Shown in pieces: positions 24,211 to 52,345 of a stretch of 64,000 bases of DNA (position 1 is its first letter; each line of letters starts with the position of its first letter). The DNA comes from Nemertoderma westbladi (lineage: Eukaryota > Animalia > Xenacoelomorpha). The translations under genes and the position numbers were made by a program. The stretch lies in the NCBI GenBank assembly GCA_032718475.1, contig JAUCBJ010008729.1, forward strand, positions 1 through 64,000, written 5' to 3'. A model generated the notes under the pieces. That model was not told where the DNA came from. It saw nothing but the letters and a program-made list of their open reading frames with translations, and ran no database searches.

Positions 24211-26160
24211 GTTTGATTGTACAGTTGAATGCCTACTACTATAATGACAGTTAAAGCAAGTCTAGTAAATCAGTATCAACTGTTAGCCTAGTAATTAATT
24301 ACCGATATCGTTACTCAATGTAACGCGATATATATATAATATATTAGAATACCGGTATACACTTATAGTATATATATAAGTATTATTACAGACTAGGGTT
24401 TGTCACAGAATACCGGTATATAATTTCAGCATAAATATATAGAAATATATATAATAAGCCTACCGTGAATACCGGTATACAGCATACACTTATAGTATAT
24501 ATAAGTATGATTATAGAATAGAATTAATTACAGAATACCGGTATATAATTTCAGCTTAAATTTATAGAAATAAATATAATAAGCCTATCGTAAATACCGG
24601 TAATGTCAATTATTTTACGATGCCTAAATTTTTGAATTTTAGGGTTACTTTCCTTTACTTTATTACTGTTATTAAGCAGTAGTCCAACTGATGTTAAGAC
24701 CTAATTGATGTATAACAGGCCTACTATTTTATAAATTGGTTTGAGTTGATTTATAATATATATATAACCGTATAATGGGTTTTTGACAATATTTGAAATA
24801 AATATTATTATTTCTGGTAAGGAGTCACTACACAGAAGCTGAACGCTCTCAGTGGAGTGCTACTTGTTGGACACTAAAACAAATAATTATACTTGACTAA
24901 GTTACTTATTACTACAAATTACATACAATTACTGGGCGAGATTTCAATCTCTAATAAACACAAAAATTACACGTACAAATTTTAGGGTAATTTTACAGGA
25001 AATCTAGAAACCAGCCTAACAAGGGGTTAGAATTTCTGGTTATTACAACGGACAGGATACTACGGTATTTGAAAATAATTAAGCAGTAGTAAATAAATTG
25101 CGTTGTCCAGATAAGAAAATACCACCATCTGACGACTTATAGTCTTTAGCTGTACAGCTCTATAAGTACTACGTTATGTACCCGGAGTGTTCTTACCTAG
25201 AAGTTAATTACCGCAGCCAACCAGAGCTAACGTGCCTATTAACCACTTTACAACACAAATATACTGCCTACACACTAATTACCTTCGGAAAGTACTGTAC
25301 ACTAAACCCTAAAGTAGGTACAAGTACTTATACAACAAATAACCAGCAGTTAAAAATACTTGTACAGCTAAAAGAACCACGGTATCTGCTGGAGTGACTA
25401 GAGCATAAAATCACCAGTCTTTACCTACGCCAAGCAGCCCTGATGTAGTACCGGGGTTAATTTAACTATAACGGTATATATAACAAGCACAATTACTGTA
25501 GGAATAAACTTGGGGAGTTATGTATGTTGCGAATACTCGTATATACTCTGAATAATAAATATTACGCTATCCGTGCAGACTACACAAACAAAATACAAAC
25601 TAAACGCTGGCAGACTACTATCAAGCCTAAATAAACTACAGTATATGCAGACTCCGGAATGGTTAGTTAGTATGCGTTCTAACCGAGTAGTACGACTTAT
25701 TCTTTCGGGGGGGATTTACCTTACAGCACTGGATGCCCCCACCTTCCTAACTAGTACTTTATTGGACATACACTCTACACACACTGCAATCTCTTCAGAC
25801 TCAACAACAGTCAGACAACAATCCAGCCTACAAATTATTTGTACAATTTGAGCGGGCTTACACGCCTTCTGCTCAATATTACACTTACAAATAAATAAAA
25901 CTGACAGAAATAAATAAGCTCTAAAAGAAACAAGGGGTGTACAGTCCCTAATCTCTTAAACAGCCTACCAATATACAATATCACAATCGAAATAATACTG
26001 GTACCGGTAAGTACCGGTTCGGGTGGCTAGGTAGTTAGGCCTACAGGTTACCATCCGACCGGTACAGTCGAATTTATTGCCTACGTGCAATCAAAACAAA
26101 AAATCTATTATTGTTCTTACCAGAACAATAGACAACTATATTTTTGTTTCTAAAATTTGA

Positions 26161-26171
26161 AAATCTATTAT
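26161..26171 (-). promoter_or_regulatory. Non-tRNA-like PBS-position sequence of outer element (ATAATAGATTT)
   Basis: Abuts the 5' LTR; no TGG; complementary to LTR-internal AAATCTATTAT (10899-10909, 46276-46286). Confidence 0.6.
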
Positions 26172-26457: not shown

Positions 26458-28654
26458 TGATAAACAACCGCGACCTCTATACTAACAGCAGAACCGTTGA
26501 ACAGACAAATACCCGTATACCTCTCTGCCAACCTAATGACTGTAATGAGCTCTCGCCTAACCAATAACAGAATAAGACACAAAGACTGCACTACTGTTAA
26601 GTAAAGGGGATCAGGAGCGTGATATTACTAAATTGTAAGGGTTGCTAAATACAAAACCGCTACTTATCGTTAGATGGCGCTAATCTGCCGTACGCTAATA
26701 TATTTACTAAATTTACACAACTCCTGCAAAATCGCTTGTTCCTTTCTCTACCGATCGCTCGATAGAGAGCTAACTGTTCGAATCTATGAGCCACGCGGGA
26801 ATAACCAAAACAATAAACCCGAGTCGGCTCCCTAAGCTTACTTAAGACGAGTGCGAGAGGCCTTGCACTCAGAGTATTCTTACGCCTAATTTTATCACTA
26901 TTAAAGCACGCTATTACCTACGTCTTTCTAATCGCGAATACTGGAGGTTCCCTAACGTAATGTGTGAATGCGAGAATATTTAAATATCAAAACGGTACAG
27001 TATCTGTTCCTACGTAAATAACATCACTCCGGGTCTAAAATCGCCTGCAGCTGGCTTTAGACCAGCAAATTACTAGCGTATCGTGCGTACCGAATAGTAC
27101 AATCTAGCTGATTGCCCGCTAATGCAAATAACCGCTCAGCGTGAATAGTTTACAGTACTCTAATTATTACTTTAGCTACTCTCCGCTATGCTGCGTACTA
27201 ATTCTTAATTTTTACTAATTAATTACAGTCACAAATATTTAACAGCGTACTAATTACTAAGAGTTCCAGAATACGTAATTCTAATTTATTACGCAACAAG
27301 TTTCGCTAGTAATAGCCTAAATTTGCCGTATTACTTTGACCTAATCAGTAACCAATTATTGTAACTAAGAAATAGAAATCAATCAAAGAAAAGGGGGGCG
27401 CCTACCTAAACATTCATAATCATAGGCACACTTCAATAACACACCAATCAGCGTTCACAGTTCGCAATTATGCAGTTAACTACTGTATAGTCCACAATTA
27501 TGCGACTCACTATTCGTACTCTACATTTAACGTTATACGCTCTAATACGCTGTAACACGTGCAGGCCTCTCCCGGGTACATATGGGACTCCTAACTAACC
27601 TGATTCCTGCCCCCTAATACTAAATAGAGACGAAACCTGGATCATCAGCCCCCTAATTACTGTACCGGCGATAGGTCTGCCCGTTGCACGCAAGTTGCCC
27701 GACCCCCGCCAGCGTTGCCTGCCTTTGAATCCTCTGCTCTCCCTTAGTCGCTCAACCCCCCGATGTGCCCACCGCCCACTGGCGCCTTAGCCCTCCATTA
27801 TGCTAATAGCTACCGTAGCGGCGCATGCAAATCACAAAGTCTGACAGTCTCAGGAATCCCTTAGGATTATTGCGCAGAAAAGAATCACATAGAACCATTA
27901 ATCAAAAGGTAGAAATCATAGTTCAGTTGTAATTAGCAGTAATCGACAGGAATTAATTGAGAAACACAAGCAAGAGTAATCGCACTAGCAAATCATTCCA
28001 AGAAATTAATCAAATTAGCAAATTGCAGAAAAATACAAGTATCAAGAAAAACAGTAAGACAGGTGCTAGGGCTAGGTGTCATGTGATGATAGGCTCTACC
28101 GGCACACCGCCAATTTATAGGTGATCCAGATGGGGTGATGCAATAGGGTGACTCAATCGCTTTCTTATTGGCTCTCCAGTCCGTGCTAGCACTAGACCAA
28201 CCTGGAAGCAGCTAGTCCAATAAGGAGGCCGGATTGTAGCCCTATTTGCTCCCCTTCCTCGAATTATTACCATATATGGTAATGGTTCACGTCTCTGGCT
28301 GCTGAATGGCCAGGACAGCGTCCCTATATGCTAGCCCTACTAAAGCTAATATCAGCAAGCACGGAATCCAGGGTCCGAATAAACTTACCCTGGAACTATC
28401 TACATATAACCTAATACAAAATTACGTAGGTAGGGCTACATACTATACAAAATGGATGGATTCAAATATATGGGTGTTTCGATTTCCCTATCTAAATACC
28501 ACTGCGTTATTATGCCTTATCTAAAATATCATGCTGCACAACGGACTAATATTACATACAGTATAACGGACTAATATTGCATACTGCATAACGGACTAAT
28601 ATTGCATACTGCATGATGACTAATATTATGGATACAGCGCCATATACCGTAACA
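26458..28654 (-). repeat. 3' LTR of inner element (2197 bp)
   Basis: Near-identical to 43574-45789; about 3 substitutions and 3 small indels by eye. Confidence 0.96.
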
Positions 28655-29530
28655 CCGCTCCAAGGGAAATCATACAATGTTTCCCTCCAATTGTAGAAGA
28701 GTATAAGGTGATGTATACAAAACAAAATAAATTTCTTCCAACCAATCTAAATAACATAATAATTCTACTATTTACAAATATTGCCATAGATATTGCATAA
28801 TGAATTTACATACAAATTAAAATTACAAAATATTGTTTCTCGTTCGTTCTACATAATGATTACTACATACAAAATTAAATTACAAAATATTACTTCCTTT
28901 ATTTACTTACAAATTGACGATCTACATATTGAAATGAAACATGGCTAGGACAATGTCCCCCATTTCCCATCTCAAATTAACAAGCAATATTAACAAGATA
29001 AACTAAATATAAACGTATTTGAGGCTAAATTTTTAACTAAATTGCATTAAAGGCCGATAATCAAATTAAATATAAAATACGTAATAATTTCTTTCATTTT
29101 CGGACTTTACTTAATTTCTTATAAAAAACGCAAATCATCTTGGTTTGATGATTGCTAGGACAAGTGAAAGGAGTAAGCCAAACCCGCAGGTTTGTCTCCC
29201 CAATCACTTCCTTCGCCTCTCTCATAATATAAATTCAAATAATTATGCAACTAGTGTATATGAGTCTAGTCGGATATTTCTAAAATGCTACAATATACAT
29301 CAGAGCGACGATCATGTATATATCTAGAGTCTGTCGCCCTGTGATACGATGCATTAACAACCCGCTCCTGGGTTCTTCGGGCTCGCTCCTCTCTTTCGCC
29401 CTCTGCCCAGATACACCAGTCGTCCTCTAGTCGACTCTGTTGACGGCGTCCGTGAGGCGTCACTCCCCGGAACCGGCGACGACGTTCCCTGAGCCCCGAC
29501 AGACTCCCGGCTCGCACTTCTCCCTCGGCC

Positions 29531-32500
29531 TCATCCCAATTGTCGCGCTCCCGTGGTCGCTTCCGCCAACTCTTCCTTCTGCAGTTGCACACGCGCTTTC
29601 TCAGACGCCCCCTGCGCCTTGCGCTGCAACCGCTGCGCTTCTATAATCGAATGGTAGTGGTCGTCCTTGACTTGACGCTTGTCTTGGACCTCTCCTCCTG
29701 GTTCTTTCCGCGAGCCTCGCGCTCCAGCGGTCGTCGCTGTGGTCGCTGCGATCCTTTGCTCTCGTATCCTCTCAGCGGTCAATGAACCCACTGGCACATG
29801 AGTCAACAAGAATTCGTTGCGGTACTGTATAGCCGCCATCCTCCAATCTCCTCGCGCGCGTACCACCTTTCTAGTCTCCGTAAATACACCCTTCGTAATG
29901 CGATCGCAAATGGCAACGAAGTTCCATGTGTACTTATTGTCCATGTTCAATTGTCTGAAGTACTCTCGAACTACGATAACTCCAGTGTTCTGTGGAAGGT
30001 CTTGAGCAGTTAGGATGAGCTCCTGATATTGTGGTAGCGATTGTAAATATGGCTCGTACGCAACATGCGATGGGTCTACCGCCCAAAACCCATATCCCGC
30101 TTTAAATGGTAACCAACGCATCTGCGCTTGGATATGGTAATCGGCCACACCCTCCCACTTATCTAACATCTCCCGAAGTAGGTTAGCGCTATGGTTTTGA
30201 AAGGAATCATCTCGTAGCTGACATCTTGCGCTACGATGTCCCTTTACCCCGCAATATTCGCATTGAGAAATGAAGACGGTGCACGTATGAAACGAATGGT
30301 CGGTCTCATTACACCAACGGCAGACCTTATGCGCCGCCTCTATTACCGCGTCGCACGACTTTAGATTGTGCCTTGTGCTGCCGCACAATTTGCACCTACG
30401 CGCTTGTGGAAACCAGGCCCTCTCGTATATGAGGTCTCCAATCGGTTTCGCACTTCCTTCTTTCCCAATGTCTAATACGATGTCGTCCTCTCCAGTCAAC
30501 GGTTGTCGATCCGGAACAAAGTAAACATCCTCGCCCTTATCCTCTATCTCCAATATTTCCTCCCGCGTTCGTTTCGGATATGTCTTCTCCACCGGGAGAT
30601 CTACTCCGAACACCTCTACTAAAGTCTCCGGCCAGCCCTCCTTAACAGGTTTATCAGCCTCCGAGTGGAAGGGAGTACCAAACCCGCGGGTTTGATTCCC
30701 GAACCACTTCTCCAAAGCTTCTGGCGTCGGATATTCCATCGACGGTCGGTCTCCCAAATCTCCGATATTCTGTCGATATATTCCTTCGAATATCGCTAAT
30801 CCTCTCCTCACCATCGACGTATTCTCTAACGATTGGTTGAAGAACGGGGTTAAGAAACGCTTCATCACGTCGGATTGGATTCCCCCTTTCGAGCGAACGT
30901 ATTGATCTCCTCCGAATACCAATGGATGACGCTTCAAAACTCGCGCAACGATATCCGCTAATAAACAAGTCACCGTGTTCGACTCAAGCACCAAATAATA
31001 TTGTAGCGACGCACGGGGTGGCGCGCAAATGTTCCAATACACTAACGCTTGCCGCTTGAAGTGGGATTTGAACTCCGCTCCCGGTGGCGTGTTGTATTCG
31101 CCGTACGCCTCCTCGTACTTCTTTTGCGTCTTTAACTTAAAGTCCCAATTATACAACAAGTGTGCTATAAAGCCCATACCAGTCTTGGCAGAGTTGGGAT
31201 ACTCCCTATAAATTCCAATATCCTGTGCCCATAGCAACAATAGCTTGGTGTCGACAAACGGTCTAGGCAATCTATCTTCCAGATCAGTCATGGCGTTGAA
31301 GTCGCTCTCCAAATCGCTCTGGACTCCCGATCCCACCTTGACGTAATCTTGGTTGAGAATAGCCTCTCTAACTTTCTTGGGTAACATCCTGGCGTCGATA
31401 CGCTCCGCTCCGTGCATACCTCCTCGCCTGCATACCTCCAAAATCTGTTCCCTAGGATCCTTTCCCTTCCGATATTGTGTCGTTATGATGGGCTCCGGTC
31501 TCTCTCGATCCGCCCTCACACGCATAAACACATGAGTCACACCATCGGCCGCACGAATCTGAATACACTTGCTGGTCAAGCATTCTTGATGGGACCCTCC
31601 TTCATTGTCGTAGAACATCACCCTCCAATCTTGCAGTGATTCCTCCGTTTTCCTCCACTGACGCTGAATCTCATCTGATGGGGTCCACATGCGCTCGATC
31701 GCCTTGTGGTCATCATATCGGGTATAAGAACCCTTCCTCCTCAGCCACGTCTGGTCTACCTCCTCGTCGTCTGGGAATGTAGCCACCGCGACCCATACCT
31801 TGATGTACTTATCCAACCATCCGAATAACTTACTCTCCTTCCCCGGAGCTCCAATCTTATCCAACGTGTCGTAATCTGTGATCTGCATTGGGACATCACG
31901 CAAGAACTTCGCGCATAAAACTTCCCGTAAACAGTCAACGTTCCAATGGTCCGCCATTCTTACCATCGGCAAGAATCGTATCGCTTCTCGCGACTCCGGA
32001 TGATCTACTAATATCGCAGGTTCGGTGCCGTCGGAATAATACACCGGTCCGGGTTGAGATACGACCTGTGGAACAAATCCGGTCACTCTCCTCGTCTCCT
32101 CTTGATGTCTATCCGCGGTCTTATTATACTCCGCTATCCTGTTCTCAAATAACTCCTTCGCCTTCGCCGCTCGCTCCTCCTGCCGCAACGCGTCTATGTC
32201 GTCCTGATGCTCAGGCGTGAGGCTTCTCACTCGGTGAGGTGAAGTAAACGTAGTCCAGGGACTCGAGAGCTCCAAACCCGCGGGTTTGGTACCCGAGTCC
32301 CGCGCCGCTTCGCGCCGCGCCTCTAGATCCTTGTAGGCTCGGTATAGCGAAATGGCCGCTGCCGTCTCTATCAAACTGGGTGTCGAACAGGGTTTAATCT
32401 CCGTATACGGATCTAATGTCGTAACGGTCGGCGTAATGGGTCTCGGAGGTCGCTTTCCGCTGAAGTCGATACTGATCATCGGGTTGCTCATCGGGTAACC

Positions 32501-33061
32501 TCCCTCGTTATATCTAAGGAATTGGTGAGCTGGACATCGCGTTAATATCGGTTCCGGATGTTGCTCGTCTAATCGGTCGGGAATCGCCACGTCCTGTTTA
32601 TTCATGCATTCACCACACTTGTAGAAGAGCTTGTATACGCTGAAGACTTTCGGCGTCTCCTGATCCTCGCCTCGAGTCCTCCGATACAGATGCATTCCGT
32701 CGAACTGGTCTCGGACTGCAGGTAGAGGCTCCTCATGTCGTAAATACATATTCATATGGTATAGTCGTGCGATTTCCTCGTCCGGATCTGCGCTAATGTC
32801 GCACACGTCCAAAGCAAAGTCGTAGGGATACCGCGTGCGATACTCTTTCCGCAAGACTTCCATCCGGTCCCCCAATGCTCTCATTCTTTCTCTCCGTAAT
32901 TCTTTATCATAACTTGGTTTATACTTCCCGTTCAGCTCCATCACGGACCGCCCATGGTAGTAAACGTTAGAGTCTTTACATCCCGGTCGCGCGAATGGTA
33001 GCTCCGCCTTTTCTCTGGCAGTAAATCCTCTGCGCGGTTGCGCTCTAATATCCCTCTCCAT
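29531..33061 (-). CDS. Accessory protein of inner element, 1176 aa: DEDDy-like (WRN-exo/RNase D/Mut-7 type) 3'-5' exonuclease plus three CCHC zinc knuckles
   Basis: ExoI VMFYDNEG (DNE at 31601-31609); CIQIRAADG..HVF; LPKKVREAILNQDYVKVGSGVQSD (ExoII); FVDT; ExoIII-like LQYYLVLES; knuckles CKLCGSTRHNLKSC, CRWCNETDHSFHTC, CEYCGVKGHRSARC (30221-30394). Confidence 0.8.
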   Translation of the reverse strand: MERDIRAQPRRGFTAREKAELPFARPGCKDSNVYYHGRSVMELNGKYKPSYDKELRRERMRALGDRMEVLRKEYRTRYPYDFALDVCDISADPDEEIARLYHMNMYLRHEEPLPAVRDQFDGMHLYRRTRGEDQETPKVFSVYKLFYKCGECMNKQDVAIPDRLDEQHPEPILTRCPAHQFLRYNEGGYPMSNPMISIDFSGKRPPRPITPTVTTLDPYTEIKPCSTPSLIETAAAISLYRAYKDLEARREAARDSGTKPAGLELSSPWTTFTSPHRVRSLTPEHQDDIDALRQEERAAKAKELFENRIAEYNKTADRHQEETRRVTGFVPQVVSQPGPVYYSDGTEPAILVDHPESREAIRFLPMVRMADHWNVDCLREVLCAKFLRDVPMQITDYDTLDKIGAPGKESKLFGWLDKYIKVWVAVATFPDDEEVDQTWLRRKGSYTRYDDHKAIERMWTPSDEIQRQWRKTEESLQDWRVMFYDNEGGSHQECLTSKCIQIRAADGVTHVFMRVRADRERPEPIITTQYRKGKDPREQILEVCRRGGMHGAERIDARMLPKKVREAILNQDYVKVGSGVQSDLESDFNAMTDLEDRLPRPFVDTKLLLLWAQDIGIYREYPNSAKTGMGFIAHLLYNWDFKLKTQKKYEEAYGEYNTPPGAEFKSHFKRQALVYWNICAPPRASLQYYLVLESNTVTCLLADIVARVLKRHPLVFGGDQYVRSKGGIQSDVMKRFLTPFFNQSLENTSMVRRGLAIFEGIYRQNIGDLGDRPSMEYPTPEALEKWFGNQTRGFGTPFHSEADKPVKEGWPETLVEVFGVDLPVEKTYPKRTREEILEIEDKGEDVYFVPDRQPLTGEDDIVLDIGKEGSAKPIGDLIYERAWFPQARRCKLCGSTRHNLKSCDAVIEAAHKVCRWCNETDHSFHTCTVFISQCEYCGVKGHRSARCQLRDDSFQNHSANLLREMLDKWEGVADYHIQAQMRWLPFKAGYGFWAVDPSHVAYEPYLQSLPQYQELILTAQDLPQNTGVIVVREYFRQLNMDNKYTWNFVAICDRITKGVFTETRKVVRARGDWRMAAIQYRNEFLLTHVPVGSLTAERIREQRIAATTATTAGARGSRKEPGGEVQDKRQVKDDHYHSIIEAQRLQRKAQGASEKARVQLQKEELAEATTGARQLG

Positions 33062-33841
33062 TATATTACGCGTATATACATATATATATATCCCAATAAG
33101 TGCCGTTACGTAACCAACTACACTGTGGGTAAATCAGTTAGATGTCGCCGAAGGACAGACCTCCCGAACCCCCCCCGCCTTCCAGCAGTTCAGGTTCGAC
33201 TCTCTAGATCCCGTCTCTTCCTAACTAACTATCCTCTAACCTATTCCCATGCATAGCGCAAAAACTTTGGAGATAAACTGGCCGTGACCAACTCACTTTT
33301 TGATGCCCAAACTACTCCCATTACTCCTACTAAACTACAGTAGTTAGAAAGGACCATAGTCACAATACTCGACTATACCAAACCCACAGGTTTGATAATC
33401 GAACATCACACATCCTGCAAACTACTGAGTGGGGTCCATGTACGCCTCTGGTGCTACTAACCTTTAGCACCTTAGTTGCACTGTTGGCACCAATCTGTGG
33501 AAGTTGCTAAACTCAATTTACACTCCTACGTAATATAGCCATCACCATGGTTTCTAAATGCTATTTTCCAGGCTTCACGACTTTTACTTTTCAAATTACT
33601 GTTTTCTATAGACGAATTTTTCTATAGACGGAAACTAAAACGCGTCTATACACAGCGTCTGGAATTGTCTTGGGTTCACTTCTAATTTTTAAAATTTTCT
33701 AATTTTCCAAAAATTTTGAAAATAAAATTTTGTTTTGATACCCACTAGACAAAACTCAACGCAAATCACCACAACCCCGCTCCTATGCATTTCCTTGTAT
33801 TTGCATACGAGGAATGCATACGAAGTGAGTTGCGTCCAACA

Positions 33842-36800
33842 CTAACTCTGTTTTGAGGCAGGAGACAAATTATAATCTCCTGTCTTGATACGTGTCTCCT
33901 CTAATAACACAATATCTTGGACCGGTCGGTCCAAGGTGTGTAAACCATTAGTTTTACACTTTTTTGGGTGCGGACACTTGCACCTAATTTTCACAGTGAC
34001 TGTGCGCACTATGTTATGCACGTCTGGGTGTGTGTGCAAGATCACTCCAGTCTCCCAATACTTTCTCTTGACAATGGGTTCGGTTATCAGTACGTAATCT
34101 CCCCTTTGGAGGCTCCGAACCGTTTTGTACCACTTTGTTCTGGTGGATATGGTGGGAAGATAGTATTCCCGCCAATATTCCCAGAATGTGTACGCTACTA
34201 ATTGAGTCACTTTCCAGCTCTTACGACTATATAGGTCGGCACTAATGGGTTCTGATGCCGGCACAAGAAATGCTGGACTCTGCATTAGCAAATGATTCGG
34301 CGTTAATGCAACACCGTCTGGTAACATAGCTATCGGCCTCGAGTTTAGGGTATGCTCGATTTCAATGAAAGCTGTGACCAGTTCGTCGTCGGTAAGTTGT
34401 TTGTTCACAGGCAATGTTTTAGCAATGGCCTGCTTTACAGAGCGAACTAAACGCTCCCAACTTCCTCCTCTCCAAGGACTTTCTGGAGTATTGAATCTCC
34501 ATTCTACTCGTTGCGGCAAAAGTGCTGCAGAAATTTCCTTATTCTGTGCTGCTTTATGAGCCGCGTTCAACTCGCTATTCCCTCCGACAAAGTTTGTACC
34601 CTTATCGGAGTAGAACGCCTTTACTAGTCCTCTCCTGGCCATAAATCTCTTTAAGGCCAGGAGCAGAGATTTGGTCGACATGTCTGCCACACGCTCAATG
34701 TGTATGGCTCTACTCGCCATACATGTCAGTAGCAGACCCCATCGTTTGTGGGTCAGCCGTCCACTCTTTGCTTCAATCGGACCAAAACAATCCACCCCTG
34801 TGTTCGTAAAGGGTGGGTCATATGCATGCACTCTCGCTTCCGGGAGTTCAGCCATCTCCTGTTCCAATACTCTGGCGTTCACTCTCTTGCAAACCAGACA
34901 GGCGTCGTACATGGTGCCTACTGCCCTGCTTGGCTGCAATAGAATGAATCGCTGTCTCGCTGCCGACAAACAGTGTAACTTTCCCGCGTGATGCAACCTC
35001 TTGTGTATATCCCATAGAATCGCTCTTTGCAATTCTGTTGGGTGACTAGGGATTATCACTGGGAACCGAAACTGTGAGTTTATGTCGACAGTCTGGATTC
35101 TCGATCTATGACAAATCAAACCCTTATGGATTAATGGACTCCATTTTCTAAGGGGTTTATAGAGAACTGGTCGTTGAGCCGATAATAGATGGAATTCTTT
35201 GGGGAAGGCACACATTTGATAATGTTTCAAATGCTTTAATTCCGCTTGATCAATCTCATCCTCTGTCAGAGGTTGTTTCAATTTCCGAATTCGCTCACTA
35301 TTGGTGCTCAATGGTTCTCTCAAATGTTTCGAATGTTTTAAACAAAGGTACGAAATGTATCGGCTTAACCACGCAGTTCTTTTACAAATTGTCAGCCAAG
35401 AGGCAGACGAATTTAGTAATTTGTCATAAATACTGCATGACTCTAATGCCAGCGACGGTTGTCCGCTAACCAATGGAAGTTTCGAATCCAAACCCGCAGG
35501 TTTGGAAACCAAAGGCTCCATTGTGTCGGTCATTTTCTGTCCGTCACTTACCAACTGTGACTCCGGTTTAGTCTGTAAGGGTGGTTTTATGTCGTAACTT
35601 ACCCTTCCTGACCTAGTAGTCACGTAAGTCTGTTGGTCTGACAGGTCTCCGGGCCGCTCCAATGACTCTTCAGGCCGCTCCAATGACTCTTCAGGCCGCT
35701 CCAATGACTTAAGTTTGGCTTTAGACTTCGACTTAGAGACTTTCTCCACTTTGACTTCTGCATCTTCAGGCATCGGATTGGTCACTATCTTTAGTCGCTC
35801 TGGCCAATGTTCCTGTGTCCTTGTTAGAAAATCAGGTCCATGCAACCAAAACTCCTGCGACTCTTCCTGACAAAATTCCGCCGGCATTGCACCTCTCGAA
35901 GTTATGTCGGCCGGGTTCAACACTCCCGGACAATGTCTCCATTGTTCCTTCGTCGAAAAGTCAACGATCTGAGCGCGTCTGTTGGCCACAAATGTCTTTA
36001 GTGCAATATTGTCGGCCGCAATGTATACTAACACTAAGGATGCGTCCGTCCAATAGAATAAGGTCAATGTCGTGTCTAATTCCTCTGTTATTTGCTTACT
36101 TACCTCGACTGAAACTACAGCCGCCTGTAACTCTGCACGAGGGACAGTCATGTATTTGACCGGCATTGTCTTTGATCTAGAAGTCACAAAGGCCGTCTCA
36201 AACTTGTCCTGACTTACCTCTCGGCGAAGGTAGGCTACCATACCAAAGCCGGTGTCACTTGCGTCACTAAACATATGCAGTTCGAGATCAGCTGGAAATA
36301 CCAGCTGATTCGGAAAGTAGGAACGGGGTACGTCTATGTTTTTCAATAGATGTAACTCGGCTTCCCACTCTCTCCACTGCTTTGCATGTATAGGAGATAT
36401 TGGTTCGTCCCACTCTACGTCGGACAACCAAATTTTCCTCATGCACGCTCGTGCCTGTAATATAACCGGACTGATAAAGTTCATCGGGTCAAATAGTCTA
36501 CTCAATGTCGATAAGCAAATCCTCTTAGTCAAAACTTTGTCTGGGCTACTGGGCTCAAATCTAACTCTTACCTGGAACTTATCTGAGTTCGGGTTCCAAG
36601 CGAGTCCCAGTACTCGCGCCATGGGGATTGGTTCTACCCCCAATTCTATGTCTCCGCTCCCGCGATCTTTTACCGGGAACGACTCTAATAGGGCCTCCGA
36701 ATTCGTAGTGAACTTGGTCAGAGGAAATCCCCCTGTAGCCAAGCACTCTTGCAGGCCGTGAGCCACTTCTATGGCTTGTTCCGCCGTGTCCTTGGACACC

Positions 36801-38815
36801 AATCCGTCGTCCATGTAGAAGTTTCTCAAGATGGACTCGATAACCTCTACTGGGTACTTACCAATCTGGGCTGTTGCCGTTTTCTTTAGAACAAACAGCG
36901 TGCCATTCGGACTATCGCGGGCGCCAAATATCCTAACGTACATTTGGTATGTAACCACTGGGCCGGATAAGTCTTCATTCTCGTACCAGAGAAAGCGAAG
37001 GCTATCCTGGTCTGCCTTACAGGCTCTTACCTGGTGGAACATCGCCTCGATGTCACAAGTAAATGCGAATCGTCGCTGTCTAAAACGCAACAGTATTCCT
37101 ATCAAATAGTTATTCAGGTTGGGACCATCCATCAACTCTGAATTCAGGGACATACCTCTATAGACTGCTGCGCAGTCGTTGACTACTCGGACTTTGTCTG
37201 GCTTGTCAGGGTGAGTCACATAGTGGTGTGGAAGGTAATAAGTCTGGTCTGTCACTAAGTCAGGGTCCTCTACCTTCCCAGCAAATCCCTTGGCGAAATA
37301 GTTGTTGATCTGGGCGCAATACTTCTCCCTAATGTCCGGATTCCTTAACAACCGAGCCCTTACTCCGTTCAATCTTTTCAAGGCTAAGTTGTAGTTGTTC
37401 TCCAACTTAGGTGGTTGTCGACGCCACAACATTCCAACTTCAAAATGTCCAGTCGGTAGCAGACGTATGGTGTCTTCCATCATCTCCAGCGACCGTTTTT
37501 CATCAGTAGACATGGCTAGGTCATATCCACCGGGTTCCATTGCGTCCCTATCCAGCCATTCGACGGTTCTGGCTCCTGTCTCGAGGTCCTGGCGTATCAA
37601 TTCCTTCTGTAATTCCTCCTCACTGTATTGGAAAATGTCGAGGTCTCGATATTTAGCCACTTGACCCTCCACTATGTCTGTATAAGTCAAAACGTTAGTC
37701 AAATAGGTAGCGTGGGCCGCTGAACCAGACCCACGGGTCTGATAACAGTAGTCCTCGGGTTCACTATCTGTCCGGTCGTTATGAAGTGGTTCCGACAACC
37801 TAACATTATCGGGAATCAACTCCTCGTCCGACTCGCTAAAGTCACTATAGTGGTCAATACAGGTTCTCCTAAACTCGTCTATGTCTGGTGGTTCTACTAA
37901 CGGTGGTTGAGTTATAGGCTGTAATTCGTCGTATCTATTCATTGGCTTGTCGCCACCTGTAAACTCATAAGACATGGGTACTCGTGTATACCAACCTAAT
38001 ATAGTCCTATGGGCATGTGGTCCATTGACATGCGGCTCAGCTGGTCTCGTTTCCCATATCTGGTGTGCGATCAGCTGTTCTGCACCAATCAACATAGAAA
38101 CATTCCTATAACCTACCTGGTGTCTGGGTATCCTGAGCTTGTCAAAATACTCCTGTGCTATGGGACTCATCGGCGGCACCTTACCTAACTGCCTGCCGAA
38201 TCCCTTCATAGCTAGACACTTAAATCCGTCCAATGGCAAAGCTTTCCGTTCTTGTCGAGTGTGTTGGTCTCTCGGTAGTAGGGAATCTAGTTCTACCGAA
38301 ATTCTGTGTCCCTTGAGGTCTCCTACCCCATGCATAGACTTCAACTCTATTTGGATCTCCTCGGCGTCCTGGAAGCTAGAAACAGCTCTCGCCACTTCCT
38401 CGTCGATATAAGATAATGTGGACGCAGTGTCCAACATCACATATATTCGCTTCGATCCCTTATCGCCAGTGAGTTTCACCGGAATCACGCTAAATATTTC
38501 CGACGTGGCCGATGATAAATACGTCCGCGCGCTGGTCGATGAACTATCCGCGGTGAAACCTTGGCAGGTCACTTCTCTCGCGCTCGACTCGCCATCCTCG
38601 TCCGACGAACCTGGTTGGTAACCATCGTCCTGGATGCCGGTGTACGTATTTCTCCTTATCGATACGGGTTCTTTGCTCCCCTTCCTGTGAGGATTTCGCT
38701 GTAAGTAACGGTCCGTCGGGGTGTGGAAATCCGCATGTAGCAACTTGTAGTCTGCCGCATTCCATGCATCCGTCCTTGCTGTTCGGGCACTGCCGCCGTA
38801 CATGACCTGGCGCAA
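33842..38815 (-). CDS. Inner element pol region (PR-RT-RNase H-integrase), BEL/Pao
   Basis: VMLDTAS; YYLPHH, CDIEAMF, FYMDD; FSDAS, PRAEL, WTDA, NPAD; HAGK..CLVC, GVDCFGP, SDKGTNF, WERL; open for 1657 codons. Confidence 0.93.
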   Translation of the reverse strand: MRQVMYGGSARTARTDAWNAADYKLLHADFHTPTDRYLQRNPHRKGSKEPVSIRRNTYTGIQDDGYQPGSSDEDGESSAREVTCQGFTADSSSTSARTYLSSATSEIFSVIPVKLTGDKGSKRIYVMLDTASTLSYIDEEVARAVSSFQDAEEIQIELKSMHGVGDLKGHRISVELDSLLPRDQHTRQERKALPLDGFKCLAMKGFGRQLGKVPPMSPIAQEYFDKLRIPRHQVGYRNVSMLIGAEQLIAHQIWETRPAEPHVNGPHAHRTILGWYTRVPMSYEFTGGDKPMNRYDELQPITQPPLVEPPDIDEFRRTCIDHYSDFSESDEELIPDNVRLSEPLHNDRTDSEPEDYCYQTRGSGSAAHATYLTNVLTYTDIVEGQVAKYRDLDIFQYSEEELQKELIRQDLETGARTVEWLDRDAMEPGGYDLAMSTDEKRSLEMMEDTIRLLPTGHFEVGMLWRRQPPKLENNYNLALKRLNGVRARLLRNPDIREKYCAQINNYFAKGFAGKVEDPDLVTDQTYYLPHHYVTHPDKPDKVRVVNDCAAVYRGMSLNSELMDGPNLNNYLIGILLRFRQRRFAFTCDIEAMFHQVRACKADQDSLRFLWYENEDLSGPVVTYQMYVRIFGARDSPNGTLFVLKKTATAQIGKYPVEVIESILRNFYMDDGLVSKDTAEQAIEVAHGLQECLATGGFPLTKFTTNSEALLESFPVKDRGSGDIELGVEPIPMARVLGLAWNPNSDKFQVRVRFEPSSPDKVLTKRICLSTLSRLFDPMNFISPVILQARACMRKIWLSDVEWDEPISPIHAKQWREWEAELHLLKNIDVPRSYFPNQLVFPADLELHMFSDASDTGFGMVAYLRREVSQDKFETAFVTSRSKTMPVKYMTVPRAELQAAVVSVEVSKQITEELDTTLTLFYWTDASLVLVYIAADNIALKTFVANRRAQIVDFSTKEQWRHCPGVLNPADITSRGAMPAEFCQEESQEFWLHGPDFLTRTQEHWPERLKIVTNPMPEDAEVKVEKVSKSKSKAKLKSLERPEESLERPEESLERPGDLSDQQTYVTTRSGRVSYDIKPPLQTKPESQLVSDGQKMTDTMEPLVSKPAGLDSKLPLVSGQPSLALESCSIYDKLLNSSASWLTICKRTAWLSRYISYLCLKHSKHLREPLSTNSERIRKLKQPLTEDEIDQAELKHLKHYQMCAFPKEFHLLSAQRPVLYKPLRKWSPLIHKGLICHRSRIQTVDINSQFRFPVIIPSHPTELQRAILWDIHKRLHHAGKLHCLSAARQRFILLQPSRAVGTMYDACLVCKRVNARVLEQEMAELPEARVHAYDPPFTNTGVDCFGPIEAKSGRLTHKRWGLLLTCMASRAIHIERVADMSTKSLLLALKRFMARRGLVKAFYSDKGTNFVGGNSELNAAHKAAQNKEISAALLPQRVEWRFNTPESPWRGGSWERLVRSVKQAIAKTLPVNKQLTDDELVTAFIEIEHTLNSRPIAMLPDGVALTPNHLLMQSPAFLVPASEPISADLYSRKSWKVTQLVAYTFWEYWREYYLPTISTRTKWYKTVRSLQRGDYVLITEPIVKRKYWETGVILHTHPDVHNIVRTVTVKIRCKCPHPKKCKTNGLHTLDRPVQDIVLLEETRIKTGDYNLSPASKQS

Positions 38816-41800
38816 GACATGCCCAACAGGTGTCCAACGTCCGCACTTGAACTCTTCTCTGTTCCGAATTTAATTCTTTGAACCGTCTGCAACTATCTAA
38901 CTTATGGTCGTCAGATCTTACCTCCTTTAGTAAACAGTATTGGCAACCTACAAATCCATCCGGCAACTCCTGTTGCTTTAACCTAGGTCTATCTAACCGC
39001 TCACCTGACCATACTCGCGAGTCTGATCTAAAGGCTGGGGTATTCGAATTATATCTGTCTACTGAGTTAAATGTCACAGTGGTCCTGTCATCGTCAAAAC
39101 TTACCATAGACTTACCGGTAACAGGTTTAGACTCCCTCATATTCTCCTCTGAGAAGTTTGATTTCATCTCTGCTACTGCGTCTGTGGCTATCATGTCATG
39201 AATATGCTGAAGTGTCAATACTTTACCTTGGCCCTCCAACTTATTCTCTAATTTGCGCCATTTCTGTCGATAACGCATATTTAGACGTCTTATTACGCTT
39301 TTCAAAACTTCGGCGTGATCACCATGATGAGGTAGATTCACCGTCCTCAGGATGTCCAATGCGTTCGAAATAGCGTTCGCTAAGTTCAAAAGCTCTAACG
39401 GAGTTGTAATCCTTCCGCCCTTACCCAAGTCTTCTACTATCGACTGCGCCATCTTGGTTTTATTCCCGTAGATGTCGCTAAGCGTCTTCATCGCTAACTC
39501 AAATGCTCTCTCGTTGCCGACGAAGTTATCAGCAATGGCTCTAGGTTCTCGATGGAGCATCTGAAGCAAATAGTTGAACTTCTCGTTGGGAGTAAAGGTG
39601 CTGTTGGTTAGCTGCTCGTCGACATAGGTTTTAAAGGTCCTCCAGTGCTTATGGTTGCCCATAAACTTCTGGGGTTGTTGCGTCGGCAGTCCTTGCCTAG
39701 CAGCAAACTTACCTATGTCCCTAAGGGTTGCGTCGTTCCGGGTTAACAAATGGTTTAGTTCCGCAGGGTTGTTAAGTCTGGTCCTTTCCCGGTGGTTCCA
39801 ACTTACCTGCTCCGCGTCGGTCCTTCTTTCCTTATAGTTTCGGGACTTCTGACGTCTCATTTCTTCCTCTTCATCGCTCGACTCGGTGTCAGTCCTTAAC
39901 GCTCGCGATGGTTTGCGCGCCGAGGCCCTGATCCAAGCCTCCTCTATAAATTTCTCGGCTGAGTTTTCGAAGTTGGGATTAGAGATGTTCGGGACAGGCG
40001 TCCTTACCTGAGGTCTATGTGGTATAGTTTCCTCCGATATGCGTACTCGTTGACTAGGCTGGACTTTGTCTAACTCAGGTCTGCTAGGATTAGAATTACT
40101 TCTTACCTGGGCTGCTTCCTTTAACCGTAGGTTGCTAAGCATGTCCGTTATAGGTTGGATGTGTGGCGATATAGCTTGCGCTAAACTAGCACTCAACTCA
40201 TCCCTCGTAATAAATTCCTGGCTAGGGTTCTGTTGTATAGTCGGCTCTATCTGAGTAATCCGCTGTCTCTCATATGATCCCTCTTCCGGTTTAACCCGGA
40301 AGTTCTCCGTCGAACTGGGTCGGCGCTCCGTCCGCGTATTCCAAACCCGCGGGTTCGGTTCGCCCAATACTCGGCCCGTCGGAGTTTCTTCTCTAAATTC
40401 TTCGTTGTCGCGTTCGGTGTATAGTGGTGCGGCGTTCCGATGACGTAGATCCTGCGCGATAGGTGAAGCACTAATACCAACTGGCGTGCGATATGTAGAG
40501 AATGGTTTAACGATCCGTGTACTCGTAATAGCTGGACCGGGTATAGGAATTTTGGTCGTCGTCGACTCGCGTATGGTCGGAGTTCTCGCTTCCTGTTCGG
40601 CCTTCTGCAGTGCGAACAGTTCTCGCAACTCGGTCCCTACACTCGCCCCACATTCTTCGATCATTCGCATCCCCTTCTCGGCGATTTCGTTCGCCTTCCT
40701 AGTCCGTTCTTCGCTCTCTAAACTTAATCTCGCACTTTCCAACTGCGCCAGTTTACGTTCTTCTTCTTCCCTCGCTCGTCTCGCTGCGCCCTCTTCTTCC
40801 ACTCGCGCCTTTTCTTCATACAATGCGCGTCTTCTTTTCTCGATCTCGAGTTCGCGTTCCTTGCGTCCGCGTTCGAGTTGAAGCTCGCGCTCCTTCTGTT
40901 CACGATCGAGTTTCTTGCGCTCGCGTTCGGCTTGGAGTTCGCGTTTCTTCGCTTCCTGTTCGCGTTCGAGTTGGAGTTCGCGTTTCTTCGCTTCCCGTTC
41001 GCATTCAAGTTGGAGTTCGCGTTTCTTCGCTTCCCGTTCGCATTCGAGTTGGAGTTCGCGTTCTCTCTGTTCGCATTCGAGTTCCTCGCGTTCGCGCTCG
41101 GCTTGGAGTTCACGTTCCCTTTGCTCGCGTTCCGCTCGCTCGCGCTTACTTATCTCTTCCAACTCTCGTAACTCTGCGTCCAACTTACGTGTGCGCTTCC
41201 GTTCCCTTTCGGCTTCCTTCCGTGCTTCCTGTGCACGCAAAACTTCCGCCTGCTGTTCGTCTAGTCGGCGTCTTCTCTCCTCCGCCGAGTTGTGAGAAAC
41301 AAGGGATCTAGCACATATTACCTTACCTCGCGCGTGACTAACCTGGGAATCGCCGCTGTCTCTAGATGCGTCGTCGGGTGGAGTCAACGTCCTCTGTTGA
41401 ATGTTCTCCGTCGTCGGTAGCACCTGACCCGGTACCACCACTCCATTCTGCATCAGCCAGCTAGTAACTTCCCTCTGATAACGGCGCTCCTCTTTATCCT
41501 GCGTCTCTTCTCGCTCCACTAAGTCTCTTAACTCTGCGTCACTCACCTGAGTCGCCTGCGCTTGTGATGCCCATAGCAGCCAGTTCTCTGTCCTAACTCG
41601 TCGGAATCGCTCCGATAACTCGCGGTGCTCTAACAAGGCTGCTAAAACCCTGTCGTAAATCCTCGTCGCCACGTCGCTCGACTGAGACTCCACTGCCTTC
41701 TTCGCTAGGACTGCAAGCTCCTCCGTCTGCTTGAATAACGCTGAGTTATTCCTCTTCTAATCTCTGCTAACTCTACCCTCCCGATGTTCGCTGAGTCGGC

Positions 41801-42292
41801 TAACATTTTCCTTACCTTGTCCGCCGTCCGGGTTATATGTCCGGCATGCGCGCGAAGTTTCTTCTTCATCGCAGTGTCGAACTCTCTATCACTTACCTGA
41901 CTTACGCTCGGTGGACTTGAAGGATTATTTCGGGAACTACGGGTACTCCTTACAGCCGCTGGGACCACGGCACTTACCATACCCACAGGTCTGGAAACCG
42001 GGCTCCGGGCTCTCGCTTCTGCTACACTACCCTCCTTATCACTCACCTCTGGTCGGGTTGCTGTACAATCCTTCCTTACAGTAGCGGTAGGGGATCCTAA
42101 TACTATTACTTGAGGTTGTTGTTCTTCCTCACTAGTCACTGTCTCGTCCTCCTGTTCACTTACGTCAGCGTCGCTCGCTGCGTCGTCATAGTCGGCATTG
42201 TCGTCAACAGTAATATTGACGCTATCGTCAGTCGGCGGTCCAGCCGCCGTCTCGTAGCTGTCCTCTAGTGCCTCTTTGTCTGAGACACTCAT
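38544..42292 (-). pseudogene. Inner element gag, with frameshifts near 41760 and near 38760
   Basis: ORFs 41705-42292 and 38544-41693; FMGNHKHWRTF..EKFNYLLQML capsid-like block; knuckles CQYC..H..C, CWAC..H..C; the third knuckle CMECG continues as KLLH in the pol frame. Confidence 0.85.
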
Positions 42293-43563
42293 AGTCTAAA
42301 TAATGTTTGCCTTCCGGCAAAATTATCTCGCAAAAGTTCGAGATATTATTATAATTTAACCGAAATACGGTCAAATTAATTGTCAAATAATCAGTTGGTC
42401 CAAAATGTCAAATAAATTCGCAATGCAATATTGTGAATTTAATGGGGTATATAGTTATAGCAAATACTAGCACAATATTTAAACAAAAATATTATTATAT
42501 AGCTACTATATAGCATTAAATACTGGTATAGCACAAAATAACTCTGAATCTAATACAAAATATTCAAAATATACTTGCCACCCGAATATTTCTAATTTTA
42601 TATATATAGCTCTAATCAACGTAATTTTAATTTCAAATATTATATGTATCCACTAGCGCGTGGCTACATCTTCGGGTTGCGACTCTCTCTAACTCTCTCT
42701 CTAACTTGAGCGATTCAAAAAACCATGGCCGGCTAAACCTAAATATCCTAACTAATAAATTGAGTTCAGCTTCGCAGTTAAACAACCGATAATTTTTTAC
42801 TGCTTCCACAAACACACTGGTGCCAACAGAACAACCAACCTTGTTTGCTGTGAGATTCCACGTCCGCGTCCAAAGATTCAGGCTCTCCGCTGATTGCAAA
42901 CCGAACCCGCAGACCCACACGAACCCCAAACTCAGAAGTTCCGTCTTGCCATGTATCTCCAGATGGTATAAAATAACTAAGCGGTTACCTAACATACCGG
43001 TACAAAACTCTAGAATTTTACAAAATAATTTTGACCGAAACTGAATTCTCGCAAACCTAGCTAATAATTTTCAAAAACTTACTAATTACAATTTGCCCTA
43101 AGGCCTAAGGAACTGTATTCGCAATTAGTAAAAACGCACTACCGTACATCCACTGTATGCAGTACAGTAAGTAAAACAGTACACCAACCTAACAGCCTAA
43201 TGATACTGTATATGTGGTACGGCAAAACAAATGTCCCTTCTACCGTACGCAGTAACAGCAATCAGCCTAATGTACTACTGTACTATTGTACGCAGCCAGT
43301 GAATACAGTAATCTAAACTAACAACCTAAAGGAATATGCTCAATGTCTTACCGTACGCTAGCCTATAGCCTACAGCAGACGATCACGTGCTCTAATTTAT
43401 TGCCTAATACTATGATACTACTAATCAGCCTAAGAATACACTATCGACTGCTGCAAGCAACAGCCAATAAATGCACGTGTTACTGATACGAAGTATCAGT
43501 AATCTAAACTAACAGCCTAAGAATACTCTATTTACTGTACGCTACAGCCTACAGCAAACAGTC

Positions 43564-43573
43564 CACGTGTTAC
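43564..43573 (-). promoter_or_regulatory. Non-tRNA-like PBS-position sequence of inner element (GTAACACGTG)
   Basis: Abuts the 5' LTR; does not start TGG; complementary to LTR-internal CACGTGTTAC (27552-27561, 44674-44683). Confidence 0.6.
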
Positions 43574-45789
43574 TGATAAACAACCGCGACCTCTATACTA
43601 ACAGCAGAACCGTTGAACAGACAAATACCCGTATACCTCTCTGCCAACCTAATGACTGTAATGAGCTCTCGCCTAACCAATAACAGAATAAGACACAAAG
43701 ACTGCTCTACTGTTAAGTAAAGGGGATCAGGAGCGTGATATTACTAAATTGTAAGGGTTGCTAAATACAAAACCGCTACTTATCGTTAGATGGCGCTAAT
43801 CTGCCGTACGCTAATATATTTACTAAATTTACACAACTCCTGCAAAATCGCTTGTTCCTTTCTCTACCGATCGCTCGATAGAGAGCTAACTGTTCGAATC
43901 TATGAGCCACGCGGGAATAACCAAAACAATAAACCCGAGTCGGCTCCCTAAGCTTACTTAAGACGAGTGCGAGAGGCCTTGCACTCAGAGTATTCTTACG
44001 CCTAATTTTATCACTATTAAAGCACGCTATTACCTACGTCTTTCTAATCGCGAATACTGGAGGTTCCCTAACGTAATGTGTGAATGCGAGAATATTTAAA
44101 TATCAAAACGGTACAGTATCTGTTCCTACGTAAATAACATCACTCCGGGTCTAAAATCGCCTGCAGCTGGCTTTAGACCAGCAAATTACTAGCGTATCGT
44201 GCGTACCGAATAGTACAATCTAGCTGATTGCCCGCTAATGCAAATAACCGCTCAGCGTGAATAGTTTACAGTACTCTAATTATTACTTTAGCTACTCTCC
44301 GCTATGCTGCGTACTAATTCTTAATTTTTACTAATTAATTACAGTCACAAATATTTAACAGCGTACTAATTACTAAGAGTTCCAGAATACGTAATTCTAA
44401 TTTATTACGCAACAAGTTTCGCTAGTAATAGCCTAAATTTGCCGTATTACTTTGACCTAATCAGTAACCAATTATTGTAACTAAGAAATAGAAATCAATC
44501 AAAGAAAAGGGGGGCGCCTACCTAAACATTCATAATCATAGGCACACTTCAATAACACACCAATCAGCGTCAGAAATTACAGTTCGCAATTATGCAGTTA
44601 ACTACTGTATAGTCCACAATTATGCGACTCACTATTCGTACTCTACATTTAACGTTGTACGCTCTAATACGCTGTAACACGTGCAGGCCTCTCCCGGGTA
44701 CATATGGGACTCCTAACTAACCTGATTCCTGCCCCCTAATACTAAATAGAGACGAAACCTGGATCATCAGCCCCCTAATTACTGTACCGGCGATAGGTCT
44801 GCCCGTTGCACGCAAGTTGCCCGACCGCAACGTTGACCCCCGCCAGCGTTGCCTGCCTTTGAATCCTCTGCTCTCCCTTAGTCGCTCAACCCCCCGATGT
44901 GCCCACCGCCCACTGGCGCCTTAGCCCTCCATTATGCTAATAGCTACCGTAGCGGCGCATGCAAATCACAAAGTCTGACAGTCTCAGGAATCCCTTAGGA
45001 TTATTGCGCAGAAAAGAATCACATAGAACCATTAATCAAAAGGTAGAAATCATAGTTCAGTTGTAATTAGCAGTAATCGACAGGAATTAATTGAGAAACA
45101 CAAGCAAGAGTAATCGCACTAGCAAATCATTCCAAGAAATTAATCAAATTAGCAAATTGCAGAAAAATACAAGTATCAAGAAAAACAGTAAGACAGGTGC
45201 TAGGGCTAGGTGTCATGTGATGATGAGGCTCTACCGGCACACCGCCAATTTATAGGTGATCCGGATGGGGTGATGCAATAGGGTGACTCAATCGCTTTCT
45301 TATTGGCTCTCCAGTCCGTGCTAGCACTAGACCAACCTGGAAGCAGCTAGTCCAATAAGGAGGCCGGATTGTAGCCCTATTTGCTCCCCTTCCTCGAATT
45401 ATTACCATATATGGTAATGGTTCACGTCTCTGGCTGCTGAATGGCCAGGACAGCGTCCCTATATGCTAGCCCTACTAAAGCTAATATCAGCAAGCACGGA
45501 ATCCAGGGTCCGAATAAACTTACCCTGGAACTATCTACATATAACCTAATACAAAATTACGTAGGTAGGGCTACATACTATACAAAATGGATGGATTCAA
45601 ATATATGGGTGTTTCGATTTCCCTATCTAAATACCACTGCGTTATTATGCCTTATCTAAAATATCATGCTGCACAACGGACTAATATTACATACAGTATA
45701 ACGGACTAATATTGCATACTGCATAACGGACTAATATTGCATACTGCATGATGACTAATATTATGGATACAGCGCCATATACCGTAACA
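43574..45789 (-). repeat. 5' LTR of inner element (2216 bp)
   Basis: Direct repeat of 26458-28654. Confidence 0.96.
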
Positions 45790-52074: not shown

Positions 52075-52345
52075 ATAAAATTGCGTAATTCCACCACTGT
52101 ATCGTTTAGCATTTTTATTTATTATTTTCCTGCTATTTGATACACTTGAGTAATTAGCAATGTCAATATCGAGTTCAGAAAGTGGACTGAAAACAGAAAA
52201 AAATCGTATGCAGAAATTAGGCTAGTAAAATCTGGTTCGCAAATATTATTCACAATACCATCTGCATTAAAATTCCAAAACTTGAGATTTGTTTTCAGTT
52301 CACGCCCAGATGGAGCATCCGGTCGCCCAGATGGAGCACCCGGTT

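Follow-up and report, generated by a model that had tools for sequence, protein, structure and literature searches.

A zinc-knuckle gene with a predicted DEDDy-like exonuclease domain in the env position of a BEL/Pao retrotransposon from Nemertoderma westbladi

The accessory gene ORF3 and its layout

The DNA considered here, referred to below as the window, is a stretch of 64,000 nucleotides from the xenacoelomorph Nemertoderma westbladi (GenBank assembly GCA_032718475.1, contig JAUCBJ010008729.1, positions 1 to 64,000) that contains two long terminal repeat (LTR) retrotransposons, nested and both of minus-strand orientation: the inner one lies within the 5' LTR of a second one, which is older and broken. 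Between the pol gene and the 3' LTR of the inner element, that is, in the env position, lies an open reading frame (ORF) of 1176 amino acids (29531-33061), here called ORF3 (P0001), which has the same sense as pol and begins 780 nt past it. Its product comprises an N-terminal region, a putative DEDDy-like exonuclease domain, a linker, three CCHC zinc knuckles and a conserved C-terminal domain. All coordinates given for ORF3 and for the two elements refer to features on the minus strand.

The exonuclease domain extends over about residues 465-712 (30926-31669), with support from a profile match to EXD2, a structural alignment with VIA-align and variant counts. All the motifs that an initial annotation of this DNA had named were located: ExoI with D485 and E487 (31601-31609) in YDNEG at residue 484, the ExoII block LP..V...ILN.DYVKVGSGV.SD closing on D583 (31313-31315), FVDT at residue 602, ExoIII Y689-x3-E693 in YLVLE (689-693; 30983-30997), and three CX2CX4HX4C knuckles (residues 890-947, starting at 890, 914 and 934; 30221-30394). 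D485, E487 and D583 correspond to the ExoI D-x-E and the ExoII Asp of the DEDD superfamily, while ExoIII has the Tyr of the strict DEDDy motif Y-x3-D with Glu as its acid, a conservative variant of the canonical motif. The unnamed C-terminal domain (about residues 951-1045; 29927-30211), with an invariant Ala and Gly and a near-invariant Glu, Arg and Tyr, always stands downstream of the knuckles; its pLDDT is mostly 60-84 in the model described below, and a PDB sequence-profile search with it returned no match. At the other end of the protein, the annotated CxxC..CxxH (residues 149-179, with CxxC at 149 and CxxH at 176; 32525-32617) is present as a pattern and could form a zinc site, but it falls outside the coverage of all homologs.

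In agreement with the initial annotation, ORF3 has no clear transmembrane (TM) segment, the hydropathy maximum over 19 residues being 1.34. In addition, no env family occurs among the Pfam matches for ORF3, and the signal peptide and TM anchor expected of an env product were not found. Judged by its sequence, ORF3 is not an env gene.

Homologs of ORF3

A homolog of ORF3 is present in the outer element (11680-13125), where the C-terminal half of the exonuclease, the knuckles and the C-terminal domain are found, 24% identical to ORF3 across residues 596-1049 (E 3e-30). The Glu at ExoIII announced for both copies is indeed there, YTIFE standing opposite YLVLE, but the N-terminal half of the outer exonuclease, with ExoI and ExoII, was not detected in any frame. 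The segment upstream of this remnant (13140-14331) holds no detectable match to the missing half, which may have been deleted or replaced.

Outside the window, a full HMMER scan (phmmer) with residues 351-1060 as query against 1.84 billion representative sequences gave nine matches, one of which (P0009), a knuckle-repeat protein, was excluded from the alignment. The eight outside homologs kept are distant (their identity to ORF3 is 13-22% for the exonuclease and 25-32% for the knuckles), 514-727 residues long, unnamed or "hypothetical", and share the layout of exonuclease, variable linker, three CCHC knuckles and C-terminal domain. No close cellular relative of ORF3 was found among the 1.84 billion representatives, and no phage match for ORF3 was obtained.

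The resulting alignment of ten sequences shows D-x-E at ExoI in seven rows, D-x-K in one (P0002) and the region missing in two; the ExoII column holds Asp in eight rows, Ser in one and a gap in one. At ExoIII, Tyr is present in eight rows and the acid is Glu in four and Asp in six. Since Glu recurs in four of the ten rows at the correct column, for instance in P0003, it is a recurring variant of the family rather than a sign of decay; P0004 is an example of a homolog with Asp. Across the knuckles, nine Cys and two His are invariant and the third His is at least 90% conserved. The resemblance is not a matter of chance: a profile of the exonuclease domain made from the eight outside homologs scores ORF3 at 68.4 bits, compared to 15.6 bits for the best of 1000 shuffles, a test which is partly circular because these homologs were themselves found with the ORF3 protein.

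As to the genomic context of the homologs, six of the seven locus scans were empty and only the 3.7-kb locus of P0002 (L001) was recovered, in which neither a pol gene nor a recognisable LTR was found. P0002 has lost the ExoI Glu and the ExoII Asp, and its module of knuckles plus C-terminal domain is doubled in tandem (L001 124-2022). Behind it come 1.4 kb of non-coding DNA and the beginning of an acidic ORF that loosely resembles the start of the inner gag, a likeness in sequence that is only suggestive of an element context.

Predicted fold of the nuclease domain

The family DNA_pol_A_exo1 (PF01612), proposed in the initial annotation as a check on the domain, does not match ORF3 in Pfam, and the homolog P0003 reaches 11.9 bits, below the gathering threshold of 23.6 bits; the ten-sequence family profile matches the exonuclease EXD2 at E 3.2e-5 and has a weak match to WRN (E 0.41). 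Searches with single sequences gave little: phmmer with ORF3 against the PDB reached E 0.056 at best, and word-index searches returned nothing for ORF3 or for the alignment, P0003 retrieving itself alone. The HRDC domain of RNase D proper and Rrp6 has no Pfam match in ORF3, in which knuckles follow the exonuclease instead. In the family profile these knuckles match Lin28, the Trypanosoma brucei RNase D TbRND (PDB 7c42; E 1.5e-4), nucleocapsids and Air2.

A single-sequence fold model of ORF3 was not informative (pLDDT 32), and an AlphaFold2 model was built from the ten-sequence alignment. Residues 108-362 of this model (residues 458-712 of ORF3) were aligned by VIA-align to 48,161 chains and matched EXD2 with Z 9.5 (rmsd 5.1, 122 residues aligned), Nibbler with 8.9 (4.0, 180), RNase D with 8.7 (4.2, 167), EXD1 with 8.5, WRN with 8.2, Rrp6 with 8.1 and TbRND with 7.4. 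All 50 of the 50 matches listed are, by their titles and what we take their folds to be, DnaQ-like domains or polymerases containing one; they include EXD1 and Egalitarian, the latter bound to I-factor RNA. Lying within about 1 of each other, the Z-scores do not single out a donor family. Foldseek also puts EXD2 first (E 1.7e-3); a library of viral structures gave no match at E <= 1e-3. In the ESM Atlas, a PF01612 cluster ranks third for residues 360-760 (0.91), and the top cluster for P0003 is one of Euglenozoa with PF01612 and zf-CCHC (0.86), probably TbRND, which is taken as a lead only. Three methods thus agree on a DnaQ/RNase H-like alpha-beta fold, the model itself being of low confidence. 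Taken together, profile, structure alignment and motif conservation support the DEDDy/DnaQ-like assignment first made from the letters alone, and the domain is very probably a DnaQ-like DEDDy fold with D485, E487, D583 and Y689-x3-E693 as its metal site.

Selection on ORF3 across copies

Variants were taken from contigs of public sequencing runs that cover ORF3 (7836 records in run X1 and 3532 in run X3), the depths given being contig depths and not copy numbers. ORF3 is deeply covered with many variants, as expected for a many-copy family. Within the nuclease domain (30930-31660), 27 sites vary at a level of at least 10%, and 26 of these changes are synonymous and one is nonsynonymous, where 34% of transitions would be synonymous by expectation (p 1e-11; rough pN/pS 0.02). 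None of the common variants falls at codons 485, 487, 583, 604, 689 or 693. Of the 40 best-supported sites (out of 476), 31 lie in ORF3 taken over its full length: 23 are synonymous, seven are not and one is in the stop codon. The ORF3 protein is thus kept by strong purifying selection, tightest in the nuclease domain, and the neutral evolution across copies that the initial annotation had named beforehand as a refuting result is not what is seen.

The same contigs bear on the end of the reading frame. The length, place and sense of ORF3 are as annotated, but the word "intact" has to be qualified for this copy: at the first base of its stop codon, the differing contig depth is 20963 of 20976 in X1, 33942 of 33990 in X3 and 163 of 163 in X5 (three of the four runs, X4 being without cover), and the stop is followed by 58 open codons (29357-29533, stop included). 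This stop codon appears nearly private to the copy which, given that the site differs in nearly all contig depth and that the frame is open for 58 codons further, is probably slightly truncated. Contig joints also reveal internally deleted ORF3 derivatives within 29851-33244, one of which skips about 2.4 kb in three runs; these are possibly non-autonomous copies.

The nested BEL/Pao elements and their primer sites

The inner element runs from 45789 to 26458 and is 19.3 kb long. Its 5' LTR (43574-45789) and 3' LTR (26458-28654), of the TG...CA type, are alike over 2.2 kb except for 4 mismatches and 19 gap columns, with a purine-rich tract immediately upstream of the 3' LTR and a 5-bp target-site duplication outside, so that the element is young. 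A duplication of the same length flanks the outer element, and TG...CA LTRs with a target-site duplication are what is required of a BEL/Pao element. The gag region (38544-42292) consists of two ORFs, one with DUF1759 and a CCHC knuckle (38544-41453) and an upstream one encoding an acidic N-terminus (41705-42292), which presumably belongs to gag, while pol (33842-38803) has a YMDD reverse transcriptase (RT), Peptidase_A17, an integrase and DUF5641. The gag ORF overlaps that of pol by 260 nt in a different frame, which could reflect a programmed frameshift as well as a mutation. Based on these gag and pol domains, the Pfam matches in the window including PF05380 (1.7e-39), PF18701 (7.2e-17) and PF03564 (1.8e-9), the inner element is assigned to BEL/Pao, a group described in the published account as confined to animals (PMC3601003). 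The outer element is an older, broken BEL/Pao element, whose pol is 34% identical to the inner pol over protease and RT and whose 3' LTR lies at 10132-11272. A third BEL/Pao pol fragment is found at 61200-63866; no ORF3 homolog was found behind it in 58000-61300, which argues that ORF3 is an accessory gene.

Both ORF3-bearing elements are devoid of a tRNA-type primer site. In the inner element, the 10 nt at the primer-site position (43564-43573) are instead a perfect complement of a site in the LTR, a candidate self-primer (44674-44683, LTR position 1107; predicted pairing probability about 0.99), and in the outer element the 11 nt at that position (26161-26171) are likewise a perfect complement of a site at LTR position 364 (5' LTR, 46276-46286; 3' LTR, 10899-10909). 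The letters of the primer site differ between the two elements. In both, the complement begins at the first base past the 5' LTR, and the LTR boundary is the exact limit of pairing; each candidate self-primer site is upstream of the only AATAAA of its LTR. In a post hoc test with shuffled LTRs, 10 nt were reached in 14 of 3000 cases for the inner element and 11 nt in 13 of 3000 for the outer one. The outer LTR site is only 11 nt from the start of a TATAAA, too close for a usual transcription start. In each leader the primer-site sequence occurs a second time, at an offset from the LTR of 90 in the inner and 60 in the outer element (about 43472-43483 and 26101-26111), and this second copy is a potential competitor for pairing with the LTR site.

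The description of self-primed elements in PMC6317226 sets at least 10 bp of LTR complementarity starting 0-5 bp after the LTR; the two elements have 10 and 11 bp, in both cases at offset 0. At the level of the sequence, both elements thus carry a Tf1-like self-priming signature. A primer tRNA encoded by the element itself was rejected, ARAGORN giving no gene at its default setting and two poor ones at a relaxed threshold.

The remainder of the window holds LINE-type pieces with endonuclease and RT domains (2619-8032 and 55426-56538) and tandem arrays at 8985-9775, 52328-52717 and 57139-57959, with units of about 23, 21 and 44 nt.

Comparison with known systems

DEDDy cargo in LTR elements of bdelloid rotifers, which the initial annotation had named as a precedent, is real: the rotifer report describes a DEDDy-like ORF3 in the LTR elements Juno and Vesta as well as in Athena/Terminon (PMC5408684). 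These genes are the closest in context to the ORF3 found here. In the text describing them, they likewise have a DEDDy-type domain behind pol, no TM segment, one acid turned into Glu and a function that is predicted only. However, the four LTR clades named there (Juno, Vesta, TelKA and Mag) are not termed BEL/Pao (PMC5408684), the motif is DEED compared to DEDE here, and that description mentions no knuckle array or C-terminal domain, just a Cys-His-Cys motif in Vesta2/5. The neutrality test given in that text addressed the env- and GDSL-like ORFs and not the DEDDy ones, and the relation of the rotifer genes to ORF3 is judged here by description.

In terms of architecture, the closest protein and best working model is TbRND, matched by the family profile and by fold, in which an RNase D-type exonuclease is likewise followed by tandem CCHC knuckles. 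TbRND differs in being, in the available description, a cellular mitochondrial trimmer of guide RNAs with four fingers, a linker of 28 residues and the canonical DEDD (PMC7797062), whereas ORF3 has three knuckles, a linker of about 175 residues, an additional C-terminal domain and an N-terminal region of 460 residues. Their identity in the structural alignment is 16%, compared to the over 80% by which membership of the TbRND family is judged. By analogy, ORF3 would work like TbRND without being a member of that family, and convergence is as likely as common descent.

The other proteins of the PF01612 group, EXD2, Nibbler/Mut-7, WRN-exo, EXD1 and Egalitarian, give the best profile and fold matches, but they are 8-18% identical to ORF3 and no matched chain has its domain layout. 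A transposon-borne DEDDy domain is also reported for Dada DNA transposons of Laccaria and Ectocarpus (PMC3706591); there, according to the section on this domain, it resides inside the DDE transposase, keeps the canonical DEDD and is proposed to process DNA ends (PMC3706591). As regards priming, the self-primed Tf1/sushi elements have a primer site complementary to their own LTR (PMC4600332, PMC6317226), and the inner and outer primer sites resemble those described for Tf1/Tj1 (PMC4600332). Nevertheless, the elements covered in those descriptions are Ty3/gypsy (plus plant copia TAR), their primer is made by RNase H and no accessory nuclease is described. The self-priming signature without a tRNA-type site in both ORF3-bearing elements is, as far as the sequences indicate, new here. 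Neither this signature nor the nearly private stop codon nor TbRND as a model was part of the initial annotation. A search of the open-licence literature, to which Repbase reports are external and in which the phrase "BEL/Pao" is not directly matchable, found no paper on an exonuclease ORF3 in BEL/Pao elements and none on BEL/Pao self-priming.

Possible functions of ORF3

The reading that we tentatively favour, as a possibility rather than a probability, is that ORF3 is a 3'-5' exonuclease of the RNase D/EXD2 type, whose knuckles grip single-stranded RNA and which trims its 3' end, thereby damaging the small RNAs of host silencing. The scheme starts from a gene that the element carries as cargo where env would sit and on which purifying selection is strong. 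The named acids of the DnaQ-like DEDDy fold would, very probably, form a two-metal site; as the acids are retained across homologs that are merely about 20% identical, the domain is probably active. If it is, its substrate would quite likely be RNA, held by the knuckles in the way that TbRND holds it with its fingers, and the two-metal site would remove 3' nucleotides from the gripped single-stranded RNA. For the weakest step, and given the others, the chances seem about even or slightly better that host piRNAs, siRNAs or their precursors would be over-trimmed or degraded before their 3' protection.

Host silencing RNAs are favoured as the target because ORF3 is an accessory gene, because DEDDy cargo recurs across elements of unrelated replication chemistries and because several near neighbours in fold trim small RNAs, Nibbler and TbRND among them. 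Such recurrence is documented, in the parts of the literature dealing with this cargo, for rotifer LTR and Penelope-like elements (PMC5408684), for elements with unrelated replication chemistry in a second account (PMC6431247) and for some Dada DNA transposons (PMC3706591). A viral exonuclease of the ExoN type is described as suppressing host defence in arenaviruses (PMC7968707). In the experiments reported for TbRND, the protein hardly binds or cleaves RNA once its CCHC domain is deleted, and the fingers hold the RNA upstream of its 3' end (PMC7797062).

Several points weigh against this reading. As to the fold, the Pfam search of the ORF3 protein gives no family at all, the AlphaFold2 model is weak (mean pLDDT 48), the VIA-align Z-scores only moderately exceed the stated background of the tool (7-8), and Foldseek gives no match at E <= 1e-3. 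As to catalysis, the fourth acid is Glu, so that competence does not follow from the motif alone, and a literature search for the Klenow mutant D501E found no paper; inactive RNA-binding relatives (EXD1, Egalitarian) are present among the structural matches, and the family can apparently persist without catalysis, as P0002 has lost two acids and yet keeps its doubled knuckle module. As to the target, mature piRNAs are 2'-O-methylated and PIWI-bound and would hence be protected, strong conservation gives no arms-race signal, and the self-priming signature in both ORF3-bearing elements offers a role in replication instead. Finally, the variant counts cover ORF3 alone and come from contigs that mix copies and alleles and from which rare variants were dropped.

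Such a role in replication is best expressed by a nuclease that finishes the primer or RNA ends of its own element, which we consider rather unlikely. The RNA 5' end would pair with the primer site. After a cut, a 3' tail would remain single-stranded, and the exonuclease, guided by its knuckles and packaged along with the RNA, would trim this tail back to the edge of the duplex at the LTR boundary. Among the readings that name a target, this is the only one with local evidence, namely that both ORF3-bearing elements, whose pols are 34% identical, lack a tRNA-type site and have LTR complements of 10 and 11 nt; besides, the knuckles resemble nucleocapsid in the profile match, and RNase D-type enzymes are described, in the discussion of the rotifer genes, as trimming single-stranded tails on structured RNA (PMC5408684). 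Nevertheless, in the account of Tf1 it is the RNase H of RT that makes the primer, so that an extra nuclease is unneeded (PMC4600332), the complementarity test is post hoc and the LTR sites are candidates only, and L001 shows no clean equivalent.

The Glu at ExoIII and the acids lost in P0002, together with the presence of EXD1 and of Egalitarian with I-factor RNA among the fold matches, are also what a weak or dead nuclease would show. Serving as an RNA-binding adaptor like these two proteins, ORF3 would route or shield the RNA of the element, for instance by bringing it into germ cells, and would stand in for env without being an envelope protein, consistent with its env position and lack of a TM segment. 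We regard this as unlikely: the first three acids are kept in six of the six further whole-domain homologs besides P0002, at about 20% identity, whereas a pure binder is expected to lose its acids, as is stated for EXD1 and Maelstrom in the rotifer report (PMC5408684).

It is highly improbable that ORF3 proofreads or edits the cDNA of an element whose length (19.3 kb) is unusual, in the way that ExoN serves the long RNA genomes of nidoviruses. The fold does take in the proofreading domains of family A polymerases, and ExoN is presented in the literature as having enabled the growth of nidovirus genomes (PMC7968707). However, ORF3 is not fused to RT but forms an ORF of its own, 780 nt past pol, its knuckles and best fold matches indicate RNA, and the copies are diverse, many contigs being less than 95% alike. 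That ORF3 is a host gene which the element captured and carries to no advantage, as the truncated outer copy and the internally deleted derivatives at contig joints might suggest, is largely refuted by the 26:1 synonymous excess, by its retention in two elements with pols 34% identical, by the lack of a visible intron in the ORF and by the lack of a close cellular relative among the representatives searched, and has almost no probability left. The rest of the probability goes to roles outside those listed.

Coming back to the suppression of small-RNA defence, the widest form of the proposal is that an old animal BEL/Pao lineage encodes its own suppressor, a knuckle-guided, Nibbler/RNase D-like nuclease that would destroy or mis-trim piRNA precursors and would belong to a new protein family made of an exonuclease, a triple knuckle and an unnamed domain, in elements that would be self-primed without tRNA. 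Taken as a whole, this remains doubtful.

Significance

The role of DEDDy cargo has been open since the rotifer report, in whose text on these genes catalysis is not shown and selection is tested on other types of ORF3. To this question, the present case adds a different retrotransposon superfamily, a clear signal of purifying selection and a defined layout with a biochemically studied analogue, TbRND, as well as two concrete and separable hypotheses, host small RNA and self-primer. If host small RNAs are the target, ORF3 would be a case of an animal transposon that encodes an enzyme against host defence; if the target is the self-primer, it would represent a new step in reverse transcription.

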